Below, piece after piece: positions 5,209 to 64,000 of a stretch of 64,000 nt of DNA. The notes under the pieces are model-generated. The model saw only the letters and a program-made list of their open reading frames with translations. It was not told where the DNA came from and made no database searches. This DNA comes from Escherichia coli. Its GTDB lineage: Bacteria > Pseudomonadota > Gammaproteobacteria > Enterobacterales > Enterobacteriaceae. Location of the stretch: NCBI RefSeq assembly GCF_044324875.1, contig NZ_CP172185.1. The stretch is one strand, 5' to 3'. Each line of letters starts with the position of its first letter. The stretch's first letter is position 1. Made by a program: the position numbers and the translations under genes.

Positions 5209-7398
5209 TTAGAAGCGGAAGGTTGCGGTTGCAACGACCTGACGTTCTGCGCCCCAGAAGCAGCCATAGGTCTGGAAGCAACTGGCAACATACTCACGAT
5301 CGAGCAAATTGTTGACGTTCACAGCAAGGCTGGATCCCGCCATACCAAAGCGTGCCAGATCATATTTTACAACAGCATCCATTACAGCTGCGCTACCCAC
5401 TTTAAAAGTGTTTGCCGGATCACCATAGCTGGAACCAATAAAACGACCACCTGTTCCCAATGTTAAACCAGAAAGCGGCCCTTCATTGAAGGTATAATCC
5501 CCCCAGAGAGATGCCATATGCTCCGGTACTTGTTCTGGAGTTTTACCTTTGAGATTGGTGTCTTTGGTGTATTCCGCATCGGTGTAGGTATAAGAAGCCG
5601 TCAAGTTAATATTGGCATTTAACGCCGCTTTAGCTTCAAGTTCCACACCACGAGCGCGAATCTCACCTGCCGGGACTTGCGCTAATGGGTTTGTTGGGTC
5701 TGCTGTCAGGTTATTTGTTTTCGTCAATTGATAGACTGCGCCCGTAACAACGACCGGCATATCATTCGGAACATATTTTACGCCAGCTTCATACTGTTCA
5801 CCTTTCGATGGCTTATAGGAAACGCGCGGGTTGCTCCACAGATCGAAAGCACTCGGTTCAAAGGACTGGCTATAGCTAAAGTAAGGTGAAATACCATTAT
5901 CGAATAAGTAATTTACACCACCGCGCCAGGTGAACTGATGATCATTGCGCTCAATATAACCTTCAGTCGGCGTATAAGAGTTTTCACGAACAGTGGTCGC
6001 TTGCTTAGACCAATCGTAGCGTCCTCCCAGAGTGAATACCCATTTATTCCATTCCGCCTGATCCTGAACATAAATACCTGTTTGTTTGCTTTCATTCATC
6101 TGGTATGGCTCTGCGCTACCAAATGCAAAGTATTCAGGATGGTATTTGTTATAAAGATCGATGGATGGTGCAGATCCAAAGCTGGCATTGATATCATTGC
6201 GCATCCGCATGAAGTCTACCCCTGTCAGCAAAGTATGCCCGACGTCACCTGTAGCAAACTTACTTTCAAGTTGGGTATCAACGCTAAAGTTTTGTAGACG
6301 CTCATTATCCACCACTGTCCCGCGGTTTAGGGTATGACCATCGCTGGCAATCCCTGTGCCATAAACACTTTTCTGTGAGGTTTTCATTTCACTGAAACGC
6401 AGATTCTGACGCACGGTGAAGGTGTCATTAAAACCATGTTCAAAACTATATCCCACCATTTTCTGGTTACGGGAGTATGTATTATTCGATGCACCTTCAT
6501 TGAAATCAGTCGGTAGACGCTTACCATTAGGCAATGGCTCAACGGTCCCCTCTTTCGGCAACCAACCGTAATAACCCGTTTCTGGTTCGTTCTGAAAATA
6601 GGACAGGAAAGTAAAATTGGTTTTGTCGTCTGGACGCCATGAGAATGATGGAGCAATGGTATAACGCTGAGATTCAGAGTTTTTCTGCTGTTCGTTTGTT
6701 GAGCGTGCGAGGCCAGTCAAACGGTAGGAGAACTCACCGTTATCATCCAGCGCATCACTGAAATCGAATCCGGTCTGAAACAGATTATCCGTCCCCATTT
6801 TAAACTGAATTTCTTTCAGGGGTTCAGTTGTCGGACGCTTACTCACCATAGAAATAATCCCACCAGGATTACTTTTCCCATAGAGAACAGACGTCGGCCC
6901 GCGCATCAGTTCAACCCTCTCGAGCATGTAAGGATCAATCACAGCATCGTTATAAAAGTTGCCCTGAAGTTTTAGTCCATCAAGGTAATTATTTTGATTC
7001 AGACCAACAGATGAGAAACCACGAATAATAACAAAATCATATGTATTAGAAGCACCACGACTGCTAACCGTAACGCCAGGTGTATAACCTAATGCTTCTT
7101 TTACAGACTGAAATTGATGCATCTGCATCTCTTCATTTGTCACAACCGAAATAGACTGCGGCGTTTTTTCAATTGGTGTATCCGTTTTAGTCGCAGTAGC
7201 AGAGTGCTTCGCCGCAATAGTTGCAGCTGGCCCCCATGCGCTTTCTTGCGGCGCAGGTGCAGCGGTAACGGTGATAGTGTCTTCTTTCGGTTCAACCGCT
7301 GCCTGTGCATAAACAGACATGCCGCTAACCGCTGTGGCTACTACAACTGCGATTTTACGCAGTGAGTGTTTTGGCTGAGCAGTTTTGGAACGCGCCAT
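5209..7398 (-). CDS. fhuA: TonB-dependent ferrichrome outer-membrane receptor / phage receptor
   Basis: 729-aa ORF; signal peptide MARSKTAQPKHSLRKIAVVVATAVSGMSVYAQA, TonB box DTITV, C-terminal ATATFRF; Fur box upstream. Confidence 0.92.
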   Translation of the reverse strand: MARSKTAQPKHSLRKIAVVVATAVSGMSVYAQAAVEPKEDTITVTAAPAPQESAWGPAATIAAKHSATATKTDTPIEKTPQSISVVTNEEMQMHQFQSVKEALGYTPGVTVSSRGASNTYDFVIIRGFSSVGLNQNNYLDGLKLQGNFYNDAVIDPYMLERVELMRGPTSVLYGKSNPGGIISMVSKRPTTEPLKEIQFKMGTDNLFQTGFDFSDALDDNGEFSYRLTGLARSTNEQQKNSESQRYTIAPSFSWRPDDKTNFTFLSYFQNEPETGYYGWLPKEGTVEPLPNGKRLPTDFNEGASNNTYSRNQKMVGYSFEHGFNDTFTVRQNLRFSEMKTSQKSVYGTGIASDGHTLNRGTVVDNERLQNFSVDTQLESKFATGDVGHTLLTGVDFMRMRNDINASFGSAPSIDLYNKYHPEYFAFGSAEPYQMNESKQTGIYVQDQAEWNKWVFTLGGRYDWSKQATTVRENSYTPTEGYIERNDHQFTWRGGVNYLFDNGISPYFSYSQSFEPSAFDLWSNPRVSYKPSKGEQYEAGVKYVPNDMPVVVTGAVYQLTKTNNLTADPTNPLAQVPAGEIRARGVELEAKAALNANINLTASYTYTDAEYTKDTNLKGKTPEQVPEHMASLWGDYTFNEGPLSGLTLGTGGRFIGSSYGDPANTFKVGSAAVMDAVVKYDLARFGMAGSSLAVNVNNLLDREYVASCFQTYGCFWGAERQVVATATFRF

Positions 7399-58468: not shown

Positions 58469-59571
58469 TGGTAATGGCTAACTTAGATAAAGACCTAGGT
58501 TTGAAGCAAGACGCTATAAGGTTTTGCTTGATAAATGGTTACTTGCCATTTTTAGAAGTTAACGTTGAAAACTATAGGGAACTTTCTGATACATCTACAA
58601 TTATAACAGATGTAGATGTTTTAGGGGTTGCTTTTGATATAACTGGAAAAACCAGAAAGATAATTTTCGATTGTAAAACCATTAAAAATACCAGCCCTAT
58701 TAATAGAGCGTTTTGGGCTTCCGGTGTTATGAATTTTTTAGGCTATGATGAAGCATTCATCATATTAAGAAAGAAAGCAAGTGAGGCCCATAGACTTTCC
58801 GCAAAAACAATTAATGTCCACCTTTTTGATGAAGATCAAATGAAAGGATATGCTCAATCATTTTCAATGAATTTCAATATTGATTTAAGCTACTCTACGG
58901 ACATTAATAATTGGATAAGTATACAGGAAGTATATAAAACAGATAAAACCATCCAAAAATATGGCGAATTTTTAGCAAGTTCGGTTCCTACAGAAAATGA
59001 TCCAGCGAAGAATTTGAGAAGATTTATTGCTGCTTTACAAAAAGTGAAGAATGAACTAGACCCTCAAAAAAATAAACACAGAGCAATTTACTTGCATAGT
59101 CTAATGACATTCTCATATATTATGGCATGCTTAGTGCAGCAACTAAGAGGGTTAATTGATTTTGATTATAATCAGAATGAATTCACAAGACTTCTCAAAT
59201 ATTATATCTGGGGAGGGAAGGATAGCTTTATATTAAGACATAAGATGAGAGAACTAATCTCATCTAATGACAGTTCGATTCAAAATATAGAGCCAGAGTT
59301 AAGGAATTGGGATGACTTTATTGAACTCACAAGGAGTCTACTTGACTCTCCTAATGATATAATTAAATGTTGCCATGTGTTACGTGAATTTAGTTTTTTA
59401 GAACTATCCATGCATGACATTAAAAAGGATGAGCAACTATCCACTCTAATTTCAGATAATTCAAGAATTCGTCAATTTATAATGATAATGGCTAGATACT
59501 TAACCAACTCGATGAAAATGCCAAAAGATTTCATTAACGATCTAGTATCAATATTTGATAGATTGAGATAA
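58468..59571 (+). CDS. hypothetical protein, island operon gene B; N-terminal PD-(D/E)xK-like motif
   Basis: 367-aa ORF; TAATG overlap with gene A (alternative ATG at 58474 has GGAG 8 nt upstream); residues 48-70 TDVDVLGVAF...KIIFDCKT fit hD...(D/E)xK. Confidence 0.75.
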   Translation: MVMANLDKDLGLKQDAIRFCLINGYLPFLEVNVENYRELSDTSTIITDVDVLGVAFDITGKTRKIIFDCKTIKNTSPINRAFWASGVMNFLGYDEAFIILRKKASEAHRLSAKTINVHLFDEDQMKGYAQSFSMNFNIDLSYSTDINNWISIQEVYKTDKTIQKYGEFLASSVPTENDPAKNLRRFIAALQKVKNELDPQKNKHRAIYLHSLMTFSYIMACLVQQLRGLIDFDYNQNEFTRLLKYYIWGGKDSFILRHKMRELISSNDSSIQNIEPELRNWDDFIELTRSLLDSPNDIIKCCHVLREFSFLELSMHDIKKDEQLSTLISDNSRIRQFIMIMARYLTNSMKMPKDFINDLVSIFDRLR

Positions 59572-59577
59572 AAAGAA

Positions 59578-59609
59578 GAGCAGGCTCGAATTAAATTTCG
59601 TGCCTGCTC
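59578..59609. terminator. hairpin between convergent gene B and the recombinase gene
   Basis: 13-bp stem gagcaggctcgaa / ttcgtgcctgctc (one mismatch), loop ttaaat; U-rich tail on the minus-strand transcript. Confidence 0.5.
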
Positions 59610-59708
59610 ACCATATAAACAAATGATAATAACTCATTCAACTAGATTATCTTTAATTCAGAGCAGTAATGATTTTCTTAATAACAATTCCCCTTTCTGA
59701 ATCCCATC

Positions 59709-60266
59709 TCAGGAGGCATTCATTTCTTTTTTCACGCGAAACACTGTAGCCCTGCCACAATCGCACAACTTTGCAATCTCATCCGGTGTGTTCTTCCCAG
59801 CTTGAAGCATCTCAATGATTTTACTGTGTAATTCTTTGTTCTTTTGCTTTCCTTTATACTTCTTAGCCTCTTTAGCAAGGGCAATTCCTTCGTTGCGACG
59901 TGATGCGATCATTCCCCGCTCAAATTCTGCAACGGCTCCCATCATGGTTAAGATTAAACGAGATTGTGGGGAGTTATCGAAACTCATTGAGTTAGCAAGG
60001 AACTGAACAGTGATCCCGCGAGCAACGAGGCTATCAATCATTTCCAGCAAATCGCGGGTATTACGTGCAAGGCGATCAATCGAGTGAGTCATGAGCGTAT
60101 CACCTTCGCGGAGGTGTGAAAGCAGGTTCAACAATTCAGGTCTCTCGCTGGTGGACTTACCTGATTCTTTCTCGGTGACGATTTTGTCACAAACAGGTTC
60201 CAGTACTGCCAACTGACGCTCAAGATTCTGATCCTTTGTTGAGACTCTCGCGTAACCAAAAATCAT
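59709..60266 (-). CDS. small serine recombinase (resolvase/invertase family)
   Basis: N-terminal catalytic motif FGYARVSTKDQ with serine nucleophile, C-terminal helix-turn-helix GRATVFRVKKE; start placed at MIFGYARV (ORF-track ATG at 60296 lies inside the dyad sites). Confidence 0.88.
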   Translation of the reverse strand: MIFGYARVSTKDQNLERQLAVLEPVCDKIVTEKESGKSTSERPELLNLLSHLREGDTLMTHSIDRLARNTRDLLEMIDSLVARGITVQFLANSMSFDNSPQSRLILTMMGAVAEFERGMIASRRNEGIALAKEAKKYKGKQKNKELHSKIIEMLQAGKNTPDEIAKLCDCGRATVFRVKKEMNAS

Positions 60267-60288
60267 TTCCCTGCCCTCACCGCTGATA

Positions 60289-60353
60289 AGTATCATTTAA
60301 ATTAACTGAATGATACAGTATCATTTAAATTCTTTCAATGTCTAAATGATACT
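60289..60353. promoter_or_regulatory. tandem dyad-symmetric sites upstream of the recombinase (res/hix-like)
   Basis: Two copies of agtatcatttaaatt (60289-60303, 60317-60331), each paired 11 bp downstream with an inverted half-site (aatgatac 60309-60316; taaatgatact 60343-60353). Confidence 0.6.
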
Positions 60354-60770
60354 AAACGAGACAAGAAAAACGGGTATCGTTAGGGAGTACCCAAAAGAGA
60401 TTTTTGATCGTGCGTTTTTTAGTCAATGTAGGGTTAGTGAAAAGTTCAGTACCGAGATCTGAGTTCACGGCATTTTGTCGACGGGGTTGAACCTGATTAG
60501 GCGAACGAGATTTTAAATCAGGCGGAATAAAACAAGTTGTACTTTTATCTGAGTAAACGATCCCTTTAACTTTTTAGTCAGAAATCGTGATACTAGGGGT
60601 TTGGTTATTTTGTGTCCTTAAGGCCAGTACTTTTAGCGAGGACGAAAAAACGGCCTACATGAGAACGCTTACAGTAACTTAAGTATATTATCCAAAAAGT
60701 CACTTAACTTAAATCAATTTGGATGCAAAATCGCCACACTTTGCAAGTGAACACATACCGGGCAACAAGC

Positions 60771-60796
60771 AAATAAAAAAGGCCACTTTCGCGACC
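60771..60796 (-). terminator. minus-strand intrinsic terminator after the 119-aa gene
   Basis: On the minus transcript GGUCGC-GAAA-GUGGCC (stem with two G-U wobbles) followed by UUUUUUUAUUU; the stem does not form on the plus transcript. Confidence 0.5.
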
Positions 60797-60814
60797 TTGT
60801 ACCAGTACAAACAC

Positions 60815-61174
60815 TCATTCAGAACGATCAAGTACCATATATGCTGGCTGACACATGCTGCCCCGCTCCTGTAGCCAGTAGTAATCAAGATCGGCAACAC
60901 GCACGTCCAATCCAGAATCTACACGGTTGATCTGTAACCGTAGCCCTACAGTATCCTTGTACGATAAACCAGATTTAACATTGTATTTGTACTTAACACC
61001 GTTTTCCTGTTCAAACTGTTTAAGGAAAGGCGTCATTTGTTTCTGAATTTCTTTCAAACAAATAACCTCATTATCAATAGCAAAGGGGGGTTCTGTTTTT
61101 CCATCAGGTACAGCAGCCTGTAAATGAAAGGAAGTACTCAACAATAACAGCATTGCAACAGAAGTCTTTTTCAT
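60815..61174 (-). CDS. hypothetical small secreted protein
   Basis: 119 aa; signal peptide MKKTSVAMLLLLSTSFHLQA then AVP; AAGGAA Shine-Dalgarno; 43 nt downstream of the membrane-protein gene. Confidence 0.7.
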   Translation of the reverse strand: MKKTSVAMLLLLSTSFHLQAAVPDGKTEPPFAIDNEVICLKEIQKQMTPFLKQFEQENGVKYKYNVKSGLSYKDTVGLRLQINRVDSGLDVRVADLDYYWLQERGSMCQPAYMVLDRSE

Positions 61175-61217
61175 TTTAATTCCTTATTAAAGAACAGTAC
61201 ATTATATTTCAATGGAC

Positions 61218-62258
61218 TTAATAACAATATTTTATATTTCCTTCGGGTTTTCTCATGCATTTAATTCCTTCAGGAATATAATCAGTTACGGGAGCAGGTC
61301 TGGCATCAGGTCTTGAAAGACGATTGGATATAGAAGACAACAGACTGAAAACACACTCATTAAATGATTTTTGATATTTATTTTTTTCATAAAAGTACTG
61401 CATGGTGATTTTATCTCTTTCGTATTGCAATTCTTTGCCAAGCTGAATCCTATCCATATCAATTCCATTTCTCATAGCATTAAATCTTTCGTTCAATAAA
61501 TTAAATTGAGATTTATTCCATTCATTTAAAGGAAATAAAGAATTGTTAAGCCTTTGCCTACAATTAGATTGCTCGATAGCTGACATGTATTCTTTCATAC
61601 TAACGCCAATATCTAAGTATGTGAGTTGTCCAGCAGTTCTATCAACTGAGTTATTAGGGTAAGATTTAATTTCAGTAAGTATTGACTCTGTTAATACTGC
61701 ATTTTCTTCTAAATCTTTGCTAATAGTTATTTGAGCTTGTTCTCTTTTATCCTTATCAAATATTGAAATGTATTTCTTTACTATATCCTGATTAGCTTTC
61801 TCGGCTGCTACTAACGCATCTTGAACCTTCTTTTCCGCCGCTTTAACTCGTTGTTCTTCTACAAATTTCGCGTAGTCATCAGTATTTGTAATGTGATTTT
61901 CACGAGCGATAGAAAACTCTTTACTATCTTTAAAACCAAGTTTTTGTGCTCTGGCTCCATCGCTTGAAGATCGGGCAGAACTTGCCACGAAAGCGAGCAC
62001 AATGATCAGTACAGGAACCGTATAATTATTAACGAGTTTATAGGGTAAGAACTTCGCTTTAAGCGTACCATAACCCAAAACAGCCCAGCCTATCGCGGCA
62101 GTACTTGCCAGTAGCTGGCACAATCCAGCGACGGAAAGCATGATTACCGACCAGAAGCCTGTACCGACTGCGAAAAGATCACCAAATTTCTCCATTGACG
62201 CAAGGAATAAAAACACTCCCCAAATGCCATAAAATCCTATTTTCAAATATTTACTCAC
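61218..62258 (-). CDS. hypothetical membrane protein with coiled-coil-like soluble domain
   Basis: 346 aa, probable GTG start after AGGA; three hydrophobic segments in the first ~95 residues, then a charged Lys/Glu-rich region. Confidence 0.7.
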   Translation of the reverse strand: MSKYLKIGFYGIWGVFLFLASMEKFGDLFAVGTGFWSVIMLSVAGLCQLLASTAAIGWAVLGYGTLKAKFLPYKLVNNYTVPVLIIVLAFVASSARSSSDGARAQKLGFKDSKEFSIARENHITNTDDYAKFVEEQRVKAAEKKVQDALVAAEKANQDIVKKYISIFDKDKREQAQITISKDLEENAVLTESILTEIKSYPNNSVDRTAGQLTYLDIGVSMKEYMSAIEQSNCRQRLNNSLFPLNEWNKSQFNLLNERFNAMRNGIDMDRIQLGKELQYERDKITMQYFYEKNKYQKSFNECVFSLLSSISNRLSRPDARPAPVTDYIPEGIKCMRKPEGNIKYCY

Positions 62259-62479
62259 CGCAATTATCCTTTAATAATTTTCCAAATCGATGGTTCGTTC
62301 TATTTGTATTATCGACAATAATTCGTTTGCCTTTAGGTAGATCCCTTAAAAAGGAATCCCCCCAAAATTTATAGATTAGCAGTTGTACCACTCTCACTGT
62401 TTTGTCACTCCCATTATCTTCTCTCAGGTCAAAAGTACGGACTTAAAGCCGTCCGTGTTCAGGTGCTCAAGAGTAGCAC

Positions 62480-62590
62480 GCATATCAATAAATGATCGAT
62501 AAAAACGATCAATTAATGGATTATTGATTGCTATAATCGATCAATTACTATTAATTCAATACAAATCAATAGGTAAAATCGATCAAGAGG
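62480..62590. repeat. iteron-like direct repeats, GATC-rich
   Basis: Three copies of a-atcgatcaa at 62503-62513, 62535-62545, 62577-62587 and two longer atcaata...atcgat units; several GATC sites. Confidence 0.6.
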
Positions 62591-62754
62591 ATTCGTCATC
62601 CATGAAAGGGGTTATGTATCTGATTTCAATACAGGGAGTATTAGCGATACCATCACGCAAACGCTCTTAAAGCGTAGCTACGGCGTTTTGTAGGGTTTTG
62701 GTCATTCATGTGTGTCAGTAATGAACATCGCATTCAGGGGCTTCCTGTGCGTTT

Positions 62755-63241
62755 TGTCCGAAACACCATCATGAAGGGGGACAGATCGGATCGGGGTCGC
62801 TTCGCTCTGGTCAGTACTGGATAGTTCTTTTCCAGTAACTGAAACCGCAGATCCCCCACTAAGTACACAAAGGAATCAGTAGTATAATAAGTAATTAAAT
62901 AGCAATCAGTTATGTACTGAATGACAGAACAGAAAAACGCGATTGGTTCGCTCTGCCAGTGACTGAAAGGAACGAAGCAGTAGAACCTAATCCAGCGAAC
63001 AGTACACGCAAAGCGGGTACTGTTTAATTGTTTTATCTATGTAAACAATGGGATAGCTATCAAGTACTCACTGCGTGAGCACTCTCACTAACTACCCGAA
63101 ACAGTTCGCTTGCTTCGCCGCTCCTACTTTCAGGTAGTTAATTCGCTTTCGCTCGTTGTGATGTCCGAAATTTATTACCTATAGTATTATAAGGTATTAT
63201 TTTCCGGACATTTATGTATTTTTATGATGGTGTTCTGGACA
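62755..63241. repeat. 18-bp imperfect inverted repeat pair flanking ~450 bp of motif-rich non-coding DNA
   Basis: tgtccgaaacaccatcat (62755-62772) against the reverse complement of atgatggtgttctggaca (63224-63241), 16 of 18 matching; interior holds CAGT-N-ACTG palindromes and ttcgctctg repeats. Confidence 0.6.
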
Positions 63242-64000
63242 TCATTTTTTGCTTTTTTGTACTTCCTTTTCGTATTTGTTCCACATAGCCTTTTGCTCTT
63301 CGGGACTGAGTGCTGTATTACCACTGGCAAGAAACACCTTGAACGCTTCTAACTCAAGCCCTGGGTTGTGGCTTTTCCAGCGGCGAAAACGCTTAGCGTG
63401 ATTATCATCAAGAGTGAAACGCTTTTGCTTATTCTTTGAACCTTGCGGCCTGCCTCTCGACCTCTGCTCATCATCAATACCGATATCTATATACTCAATA
63501 TTATCTGTAAGAGATCTGGCTTGCCATTCATCAAAAACATAAACAGTCTGTGTTTCAGTACTGTCAAAATCCCTTGAAATTCCTCGTAGTACGAACTGGT
63601 GTAAACTTTCGTACTCCCTCGCAACATGTATCGCCTCGCCGTCAATCTCAAAGAACAATTCGCACTGTTTAGCCTCTGTTTCAGAGGGACGCATACAAGC
63701 GAGCCAGACGCACGTGAGCAAGTGTTGGTACTGGTTAAATCCTCTGGCATCCGGGCTTATCTCTGTGCCGTTCCTTAGGCTCTGAGAATCGCTTTTGTTC
63801 TTCGTCCAGTAGAAATCCTGCCCCTCAAGTTTCTCATCAATAAATGAGTATATTTTTTGTACTTTATCAGGGTTGTTAGTCTTCCATGTCTTTGATAGTT
63901 TGTTGTTTTTTGAGAAGTAATAAACTTTTAATCTGTTTTTGAGTTCAGTTTTTCGTGTCAGTAATCCTTCAAGTTCAGTACTTTCAAAGAGTTCTTTATT
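63242..64000 (-). CDS. hypothetical protein, 5'-truncated by the window end
   Basis: My translation finds the frame of the 159-aa track ORF open for all 93 upstream codons to position 64000 (at least 252 aa); C-terminus has AT-hook-like RGRPQGSKNK. Confidence 0.6.
   Translation of the reverse strand, partial: NKELFESTELEGLLTRKTELKNRLKVYYFSKNNKLSKTWKTNNPDKVQKIYSFIDEKLEGQDFYWTKNKSDSQSLRNGTEISPDARGFNQYQHLLTCVWLACMRPSETEAKQCELFFEIDGEAIHVAREYESLHQFVLRGISRDFDSTETQTVYVFDEWQARSLTDNIEYIDIGIDDEQRSRGRPQGSKNKQKRFTLDDNHAKRFRRWKSHNPGLELEAFKVFLASGNTALSPEEQKAMWNKYEKEVQKSKK

Follow-up and report, generated by a model that had tools for sequence, protein, structure and literature searches.

The helicase gene

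The right end of the window, that is, of the whole 64,000-nucleotide stretch of Escherichia coli DNA analysed here, is occupied by an open frame on the minus strand (63242..64000) that translates into 252 sense codons followed by a stop, with zero internal stops. The list of open reading frames contains a shorter, 159-aa ORF that begins at a TTG (63242..63721), and this TTG encodes an internal residue, Leu319, of the full-length protein. Over its last 2 kb, the window matches the chromosome of E. coli MSI001 (NZ_CP076645.1) with 100% identity, and it is from this genome that the sequence past 64000 was taken. In MSI001, the frame runs past 64000 for 225 further codons, to an ATG at the window-equivalent position 64675 that has a GGAG ribosome-binding site nine bases upstream, and the RefSeq coding sequence is exactly 477 aa long (WP_096846470.1). 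The ORF in the window is the C-terminal 53% (codons 226-477 plus the stop codon) of an intact gene for a 477-aa SF2 helicase, the full coding sequence of which spans the window-equivalent positions 63242-64675. The sequence-only reading had it that the frame stays open to 64000 and that the 5' end of the gene lies outside the window, and this is indeed the case; the truncated ORF as such is ordinary and fully explained.

The flanking sequence and a homology search, both of which that reading had proposed as checks, bear it out. There is neither a stop codon just past 64000 nor a frameshift in MSI001, and proteins of the same length (~477-500 aa) are found in more than 100 homologous clusters, with E values as low as 1e-295. 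In random sequence, the probability of an open frame of 252 codons is ~1e-5 or less. In five more diverged pairwise comparisons, the dN/dS ratio ranges from 0.15 to 0.18 over the whole gene and from 0.16 to 0.20 over the half that lies in the window, and in a sixth, near-identical pair the respective values are 0.30 and 0.37. The helicase gene is intact and is subject to purifying selection; the possibility that it is a pseudogene or contains a frameshift is ruled out by the intact coding sequence, the conserved length of the homologs and the low dN/dS.

A mosaic family of integrative islands

The helicase gene is part of an island of ~9.6 kb in MSI001, about 7.2 kb of which is inside the window, that is inserted in the 5' part of ppdD and is bounded by the direct repeat ATGGTGGTYATT (56800-56811 and window-equivalent 66397-66408). 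The left island junction inside ppdD reads ATGGTGGTCATT on the plus strand (56800..56811) and is repeated as ATGGTGGTTATT at 66397-66408. Directly upstream of the helicase gene and co-oriented with it, 117 nt apart, is the gene for a 520-aa large serine recombinase (LSR); this 117-nt integrase-helicase spacer holds a conserved hairpin, and the two genes probably form an operon. Directly 3' of the helicase gene lies a conserved, unannotated non-coding region (62259..63241, minus strand; hereinafter, the gap), a candidate origin or structured RNA that is discussed in detail below. The remaining core genes, all on the minus strand, encode a 346-aa multi-pass membrane protein (61218..62258), the N-terminal ~140-150 aa of which are common to the 257-aa versions of this protein; a conserved 119-aa protein with a signal-peptide-like N-terminus, as judged from the sequence (60815..61174), the place of which is taken in some islands by a protein of the LprI family; and a small, 185-aa serine recombinase of the resolvase/invertase type (59709..60266). 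A cargo pair of 425 aa and 365 aa, without significant family matches, is encoded on the plus strand (57191..59571).

A search for related loci with a 9-sequence alignment yielded 7 loci, and the same gene order was seen in E. coli, Yersinia, Enterobacter, Raoultella, Phytobacter, Pantoea, Providencia and metagenome loci: the integrase, the helicase, an intergenic region of 0.8-1 kb, the membrane protein (257-346 aa), a secreted protein of ~118-140 aa, variable cargo and the small serine recombinase (185-206 aa), the last often followed by a DUF2188 protein. MSI001 is an exception in that its cargo pair lies on the far side of the small recombinase. The cargo of these islands is variable and often defence-related, and elsewhere includes a Cap4 nuclease with AAA_23, SMODS, a STAND ATPase, HNH with DUF6998, DUF4326/DUF488/dual-OB and PAAR proteins. 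The integration module is swapped as well: several LSRs that share ~26% mutual identity are found in islands located at ppdD and next to yggR or arsC, and a tyrosine integrase is the alternative next to ffs. Comparison of the E. coli and Yersinia islands gives identities of 26% for the LSR, 55% for the helicase, 79-86% for the membrane protein, 75-82% for the small secreted protein and 95-98% for the small recombinase, so this family of ~10-kb islands is, by these sequence comparisons, mosaic.

The intergenic region is present in 84 of the 5426 complete E. coli genomes (about 1.5%). A search for a circular excised form detected no terminal overlaps in ~5-15 kb contigs, and the contigs of ~10 kb were ordinary metagenome fragments with chromosomal flanks. 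In the E. coli pan-genome, defence-carrying islands that encode only an integrase or recombinase, with unclear mobilisation, have been described, and it has been proposed that these are satellites yet to be characterised (Hochhauser et al., 2023; PMC10121019). The islands analysed here resemble these 'integrase-only' islands in their small size, presence in a minority of strains, defence cargo and lack of recognisable phage or conjugation genes. A term search of the text of that publication found no mention of a helicase, whereas here it is the conserved helicase, together with the constrained cis region and the small serine recombinase, that defines the family.

Domain architecture of the helicase

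The structure model identifies the protein as an SF2 helicase that contains two tandem RecA-like domains and adopts an XPD/Rad3/DinG-like fold. Among solved structures, XPD, Rad3 and DinG are the closest folds, and structure comparison places the type IV-A CRISPR effector DinG, Cas3, HsdR and DdmD nearby as well. In an alignment of 44 diverse members of the family, G19, K22, D110, G312, Q360, R364 and R368 are invariant and G21 is nearly so (true numbering; positions in the alignment and the structure model, both of which omit Met1, are lower by one). The invariant residues represent the glycine and lysine of Walker A, the aspartate of Walker B, the glycine of RGxN and the Q-x3-R-x3-R signature of motif VI. 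Together, the fold and these motifs predict an ATP-driven SF2 helicase activity. The half of the protein that is encoded in the window contains the entire second RecA domain including motif VI (QFVLRGISR, residues Q360-R368, 63572..63598 on the minus strand), whereas Walker A and Walker B lie beyond it.

The C-terminal region combines an AT-hook with a helical bundle. The AT-hook sequence RSRGRPQGSKNK (residues 405-416) has at its core the RGRP tetrapeptide (residues 407-410, 63446..63457 on the minus strand) and lies within a basic linker (~402-421) of low pLDDT (54-56) that is predicted to be disordered. The core is retained in the majority of the 44 diverse members, with the glycine found in 32, arginine or lysine in 31 and the proline in 29; furthermore, G[RK]P occurs within the C-terminal 130 aa of 41 of the 77 full-length representatives, compared with 7 of the 77 in the rest of the protein. 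Thus, RGRP is a real AT-hook-type element that is conserved in the family, and from its sequence it is predicted to bind DNA. The linker is followed by a basic three-helix bundle (residues ~424-477, 63245..63406 on the minus strand; helices 423-435, 441-451 and 457-475 in the model numbering) that is modelled with a pLDDT of 82-94 and is a candidate DNA-binding or partner-binding domain. The last 76 residues contain 19 lysines and arginines against 10 aspartates and glutamates. The AT-hook-like RGRPQGSKNK and the basic C-terminus had both been noticed from the sequence alone and hold up in the family alignment and the model; the notion of a DNA-binding protein that was built on them is apt with respect to the conserved AT-hook but missed the SF2 helicase core, the motif VI of which is in the window.

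Despite the similarity of the folds, the identity between the MSI001 helicase and XPD, Rad3 or DinG is only ~10-14%. Of the six cysteines in the protein, the best conserved are C18 (31 of the 44 members) and C322 (24 of the 44), and no four-cysteine signature of an Fe-S cluster is detectable among the aligned sequences. Because this signature is not conserved, the helicase is best described as XPD/DinG-like in fold without the Fe-S domain; some DinG proteins likewise lack the 4Fe-4S cluster. Compared with XPD, Rad3 and DinG, the helicase is also shorter (477 aa), possesses the unique C-terminal AT-hook and helical bundle, and comes from a mobile element as opposed to a repair or CRISPR context. 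In the model, Walker B is followed by an insertion of ~85 residues (about 115-200) that is rich in beta-strands and may or may not correspond to the Arch domain.

Relatives of the helicase and the type III restriction label

The sole full-length family match of the helicase is to PHROG 2467, a family of unknown function (E = 5e-38). The Pfam matches, to ResIII (22.4 bits, with the cutoff at 22.5) and, more weakly, to DEAD, are both confined to residues 13-60 around Walker A, the searches of NCBIfam and PADLOC returned no significant match for the helicase, and a PDB sequence search with the single protein and with a profile matched the motif I region alone. An exhaustive profile-free search produced 429 clusters at the 50% identity level, mostly of 460-500 aa. 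In phage genomes, homologs are almost absent, with one 22%-identity match in a jumbo phage, and in the plasmids searched there are none. We found no published characterisation of the PHROG 2467 helicases in the literature searched; the family, then, is already visible in the databases, under a PHROG number and a misleading PGAP name, but is uncharacterised.

Among the 42 relatives of the helicase that exceed ~640 aa, 15 match the DNA-primase PHROG 9765, 6 match the primase PHROG 16950 and 1 matches PHROG 1156 and also the Pfam Prim-Pol family; by these profile matches, at least 22 of the 42 are primase-helicase fusions. In addition, 3 of the long relatives match a 'replication origin binding' PHROG, and one primase-fused relative sits in an element with a tyrosine integrase. 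In the MSI001 helicase and its island, no primase was found with Pfam and the PHROGs.

The name assigned to the helicase by PGAP and carried in RefSeq, 'type III restriction endonuclease subunit R', implies a Res subunit that translocates along DNA and cuts it. Apart from the name itself, the only observation in favour of this identity is the weak ResIII match at residues 13-60, which not only falls below the cutoff but also covers just positions 27-79 of the 164 in the profile, a Walker A region that is common to all SF2 proteins; the resemblance to type III Res is limited to the generic motif I/Ia region. A Res subunit is about 850-1000 aa long in total, with a C-terminal endonuclease domain. 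The 477-aa helicase is about half that size, its C-terminus consists of the AT-hook linker and three helices, and no nuclease family was detected in it with Pfam, NCBIfam, PADLOC or the PHROGs. Nor is there a Mod gene nearby: all seven proteins of the island are without a methyltransferase match in Pfam and without a corresponding annotation, and PADLOC reports no match to restriction-modification systems. With the helicase-domain match, the nuclease and Mod all wanting, the assignment is effectively refuted, retains next to no credibility in our judgement, and the RefSeq label is an unsupported mis-annotation.

A constrained and structured non-coding region downstream of the helicase gene

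The gap is 80-97% identical across genera, and the closest genomes carry no annotation for it. Four of five comparisons put its divergence (0.03-0.24) 2-7 times below the synonymous divergence of the flanking genes (membrane protein gene, 0.21-0.53; helicase gene, 0.56-0.75), whereas the fifth comparison suggests a recombination breakpoint. Because the gap diverges more slowly than the flanking synonymous sites, it is under selection.

The constrained sequence comprises two modules, both described here on the minus strand. The two arms of a 21-nt inverted repeat (62755-62775 and 63221-63241) close module A (~490 nt, 62752..63241), which contains many internal hairpins. The predicted fold of this module is more stable than that of shuffled sequences, with z = -6.8 for the helicase-sense strand and -5.5 for the antisense strand, and its consensus structure includes 131 pairs, 96.9% of which are kept. 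Compensatory base changes are found in two hairpins (63087-63142 and 63062-63084, together 63062..63142). In a test that took in two added, more diverged copies of the gap, 5 pairs in these hairpins are changed on both sides, compared with 1.0 +/- 0.8 in shuffles (0 of 500); pairing is 97.9%, as against 27-37% when the partners are slid; and the many G.U pairs occur on the helicase-sense strand only. Given the changes on both sides, the pairing and the confinement of G.U to one strand, the two hairpins seem to be selected as a single-strand structure, be it RNA or single-stranded DNA.

Module A also includes a 51-bp palindrome, ATGTCCGGAAA...TTTCGGACAT (63161..63211), with a perfect and conserved TATAAT at the centre, which belongs to a set of four TGTCCGRAA motifs confined to the gap. 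The TGTCCGAAA motifs, which we take to resemble the half-sites of the Tn3/gamma-delta resolvases, are present in the gap only and not near the small recombinase gene. The 16-mer AGTACTTGATAGCTAT (63053..63068) recurs next to the att core in the variants of the island that have a tyrosine integrase, and its complement fits the IHF consensus, WATCAANNNNTTR. Module B (62482..62592) is AT-rich, with clustered copies of the repeats TTGATCG / ATTGAT and 4 GATC sites, and contains the palindrome ATTGATCG-N7-CGATCAAT (62493-62516) that is identical in Providencia. In the Providencia island, 2.5 tandem copies of a 199-nt unit with similar short motifs take the place of the middle of the gap, and in a distant primase-fused relative the ~700 nt located 3' of the gene are dense with perfect palindromes.

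Database searches with this region gave little. A permissive Rfam scan of the gap produced nothing relevant, no DnaA boxes were found in it, and a search of IMG/VR with a 16-base conserved pattern returned 15 matches, all attributable to chance and without further similarity. The gap has no nucleotide similarity to any of the 50,697 phage and 72,556 plasmid records, which argues against the idea that it mimics the pac or cos site of a helper phage or the oriT of a plasmid. The 21-nt inverted repeats, together with the small invertase-like recombinase, brought up the idea of an invertible DNA switch; this is disfavoured by the E. coli copies, since all 49 with a coverage of the gap of at least 80% are collinear and in one piece, and none is inverted.

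Our interpretation is that the gap acts in cis, as a nucleoprotein element or as a structured strand. In the simplest case, it would be the candidate origin of the island, possibly with hairpins for single-strand initiation. Alternatively, the gap could be a regulatory region or a non-coding RNA that serves the downstream operon, and module B could simply combine the promoter and the operator of that operon.

Function of the helicase: proposed replication of the excised island and the alternatives

So what could be the function of a conserved SF2 helicase in these islands? Whatever the type of the integrase, the helicase is its constant neighbour, while the cargo varies. Because it is fixed beside the integrase when the cargo changes, the helicase is likely to be a part of the element's own life cycle. 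Three lines of evidence, namely this position, the primase fusions among the relatives and the origin-like region downstream, point to replication, and fusion of a primase with a helicase is a known hallmark of the replication modules of mobile elements (PMC11724360). The hypothesis that we favour, and to which we would assign about an even chance, is that the protein is the replication helicase or initiator of the excised island, with the structured gap as the candidate origin. Under this scenario, the neighbouring recombinase would excise the island as a circle; the AT-hook tail of the helicase would engage the AT-rich, repeat- and hairpin-rich gap located 3' of its own gene; and the helicase would use ATP to open or unwind the DNA of the gap, whereupon host enzymes would copy the island. 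Priming would depend on the host because the island lacks a primase gene of its own, and the small serine recombinase would resolve multimers. The sequence-only reading had named replication, integration and regulation as potential roles of this gene: replication is the one now favoured, integration falls to the adjoining LSR and a purely regulatory role is unsupported.

Several observations speak against replication. No circular contigs of the island and no plasmid homologs of the helicase came up in the respective searches, the island encodes neither a primase nor a polymerase, and the gap is devoid of DnaA boxes. Furthermore, helicases that are ~55% identical adjoin gaps that are 80-88% identical; this mosaicism argues against a tight, sequence-specific co-evolution of the helicase with the origin and ties the gap to the downstream genes and the small recombinase no less closely than to the helicase. 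Finally, the characterised replicative or initiator helicases of mobile elements are, to our knowledge, hexameric and belong to SF3, SF4 or SF6 rather than to an XPD-like SF2 lineage.

Three other functions have to be considered, all of which appear unlikely to us, albeit to different degrees. The least unlikely of these is a role in mobilisation: the island would be a satellite or otherwise mobilisable, and the protein would serve as a DNA translocase or helicase in its packaging by a helper phage or in conjugation, with the gap as a pac-, cos- or oriT-like site. Such a role would be in line with the lack of known transfer genes in these islands and the proposal that islands of this kind are satellites (PMC10121019), with the existence of a dedicated PHROG, 2467, for the helicase family, and with the conserved, hairpin-rich cis region and its IHF-like site, which would suit an oriT or pac. 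However, the gap is without detectable similarity to sequenced phages or plasmids and so does not obviously imitate a site of a helper, and the helicase itself, with the single 22%-identity match in a jumbo phage, is nearly absent from phages and is absent from plasmids. No relaxase or terminase domains were found, and the primase fusions point to replication rather than transfer. Somewhat more doubtful still is the possibility that the helicase is an anti-phage or anti-plasmid effector, akin to the type IV CRISPR DinG or Cas3, that became a fixed component of the island. The type IV-A CRISPR DinG, Cas3, HsdR and DdmD are indeed among the near folds, and the islands do carry the Cap4 nuclease with AAA_23, SMODS and the STAND ATPase; on the other side, the best PADLOC match is to Cas3d with E = 0.0063 and 13.8 bits, with no stretch that passes alone, the relatives are fused to primases and not to nucleases, and the helicase gene stands alone, with ~1 kb of non-coding DNA after it and neither a nuclease nor a sensor as a partner, and keeps its place beside the integrase while the true cargo varies.

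The third alternative, an accessory to recombination or regulation that would remodel the att sites or the gap and thereby control the direction of excision and integration or the expression of the downstream operon, strikes us as very improbable. The probable operon with the integrase, with the conserved hairpin in the 117-nt spacer, would be compatible with such an activity, as would the AT-hook tail, which is typical of architectural DNA binders, and the 16-mer that is common to the gap and to the att-adjacent regions of the tyrosine-integrase variants suggests a shared nucleoprotein architecture. Yet, the directionality factors that we know of are small proteins without ATPase activity; the same helicase is found beside serine and tyrosine integrases, the mechanisms of which are unrelated; and the primase fusions are left unexplained.

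Returning to replication, a more specific version can be proposed, on a speculative and decidedly tentative note. The family could represent a previously unrecognised replication engine of mobile elements, built on an SF2 helicase of the monomer type that resembles XPD/DinG and carries an AT-hook tail, and driving the copying of small 'integrase-only' defence islands. In this version, the covarying hairpin module of ~500 nt would make up for the lack of a primase, acting as a signal for single-strand initiation or, alternatively, as a structured RNA primer through which priming by the host is recruited.

Comparison with known systems

By analogy, the helicase may work like P4 alpha, SaPI Rep and SCCmec Cch while belonging outside their families. 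The P4 gp-alpha, the PICI/SaPI Pri-Rep and the SCCmec Cch proteins likewise adjoin an integrase in a small integrative island. The parallel extends to the repeat-rich non-coding region directly 3' of the helicase gene, which is the place where the origins of SaPIs are located; P4 alpha is fused to a primase, as are relatives of the helicase. The engines of P4 alpha, SaPI Rep and SCCmec Cch, however, are SF3, SF6 or MCM-like hexamers, and these proteins show no sequence or family relationship to the MSI001 SF2 helicase. For the combination of a serine recombinase with a helicase, SCCmec provides a precedent (cited in PMC11724360).

Among SF2 proteins, the origin-binding protein UL9 of herpesviruses is similarly organised, with the SF2 core followed by a C-terminal DNA-binding region, and there are weak structural matches in BFVD to models of viral 'replication origin-binding protein' (E about 1e-6). 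The likeness to UL9 is very distant and confined to the generic helicase core, whereas there is no relationship between the C-terminal domains, and the hosts are entirely different.

Implications

If the replication scenario is correct, the protein would be a mobile-element replication helicase that employs an unusual, XPD-like SF2 engine, in a type of island that has been little studied. The islands belong to a family that is present in about 1.5% of the complete E. coli genomes and across Enterobacterales, and, in the light of the pan-genome study (PMC10121019), the helicase is a conserved candidate for the missing maintenance or movement function in one family of defence islands. On a more practical note, the unsupported RefSeq label could inflate the automated counts of restriction systems. 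Should the more specific, tentative version with the hairpin module in place of a primase prove true, it would add a new type of replicon and a new large structured non-coding element, and would explain how these islands persist and spread.

An exchangeable integration module on a conserved backbone

In E. coli, ppdD is split at a 12-nt direct repeat, ATGGTGGTYATT, by an island of about 9.6 kb (window 56800-64000 and beyond; 9801-19409 in L001, the matching locus of E. coli MSI001). The family to which this island belongs is a mosaic in which the integration module has been exchanged between unrelated large serine recombinases, found in the versions located in ppdD or adjoining yggR or arsC, and a tyrosine integrase, found in the version adjoining ffs, on a backbone that is kept throughout and consists of the helicase, a non-coding gap, a membrane protein, a secreted protein and a small recombinase. 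The ffs-integrated variants have an unusual layout, in which the tyrosine integrase gene lies between inverted repeats longer than 100 bp (5463-5580 and 6700-6830 in L015; also in L018, L008 and L016). The repeats include the 16-mer AGTACTTGATAGCTAT as well as a duplicate of the 3' end of ffs (GGCAGGGCCCCCACCC).

No gene of the element is better conserved than that of the small serine recombinase (185 aa; window 59709-60266, minus strand), which is 95-98% identical between the E. coli and Yersinia islands, and in one related locus, L013, it is present beside a helicase of only 43% identity. All 14 copies of the AGTACT hexamer in the 32-kb L001 locus (window-equivalent 47000-79000) fall within the 9.6-kb island, the 22 kb of chromosome around it having none, and the hexamer is dense in the sister islands too; this concentration may reflect either base composition or a recognition motif.

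Non-coding elements around the helicase gene

What is the role of the unannotated intergenic gap of about 1 kb (window 62259-63241, minus-strand sense) that separates the helicase and membrane-protein genes and has related copies in L002, L003, L006-L009, L012, L015-L018 and L034? It is 80-97% identical between genera, diverges 2-7 times more slowly than the synonymous sites of the flanking genes and folds with a z-score of about -6.8, and its hairpins show compensatory changes along with G.U pairs specific to one strand. The gap also carries TGTCCGRAA motifs, which we take to resemble resolvase half-sites; it has no match in Rfam or among phage and plasmid sequences. An origin, a single-strand initiation signal and a large structured RNA are all candidate identities for this region.

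On the other side of the helicase gene, just beyond the window, a 10-bp stem-loop (GAAAGGCCAG...CTGACCTTTC) lies in the 117-nt spacer that separates this gene from the recombinase gene (window-equivalent 64676-64792; L001 17677-17793). In the tyrosine-integrase variant L015 the stem is retained with other bases (GAAAGGCCGA...TCGGCCTTTC). The stem-loop may govern helicase expression as a terminator or attenuator.

Cargo and core proteins

The two cargo genes, which encode proteins of 425 and 365 aa (window 57191-59571, plus strand), yielded nothing significant against Pfam, NCBIfam, PHROGs and PADLOC, the sole match being PD-T4-9_C (E = 0.0097). Given that the variable cargo slot of the sister islands carries defence-related genes, such as SMODS, Cap4 nuclease and STAND ATPase, this pair is a candidate for an uncharacterised defence system. 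In some sister islands, PAAR-motif proteins directly follow the pair of membrane and LprI-like proteins (L034 5894-7042; L003 13607-13768), and this adjacency is a hint that both conserved core proteins might be connected not with island maintenance but with immunity to toxins or protection of the envelope.
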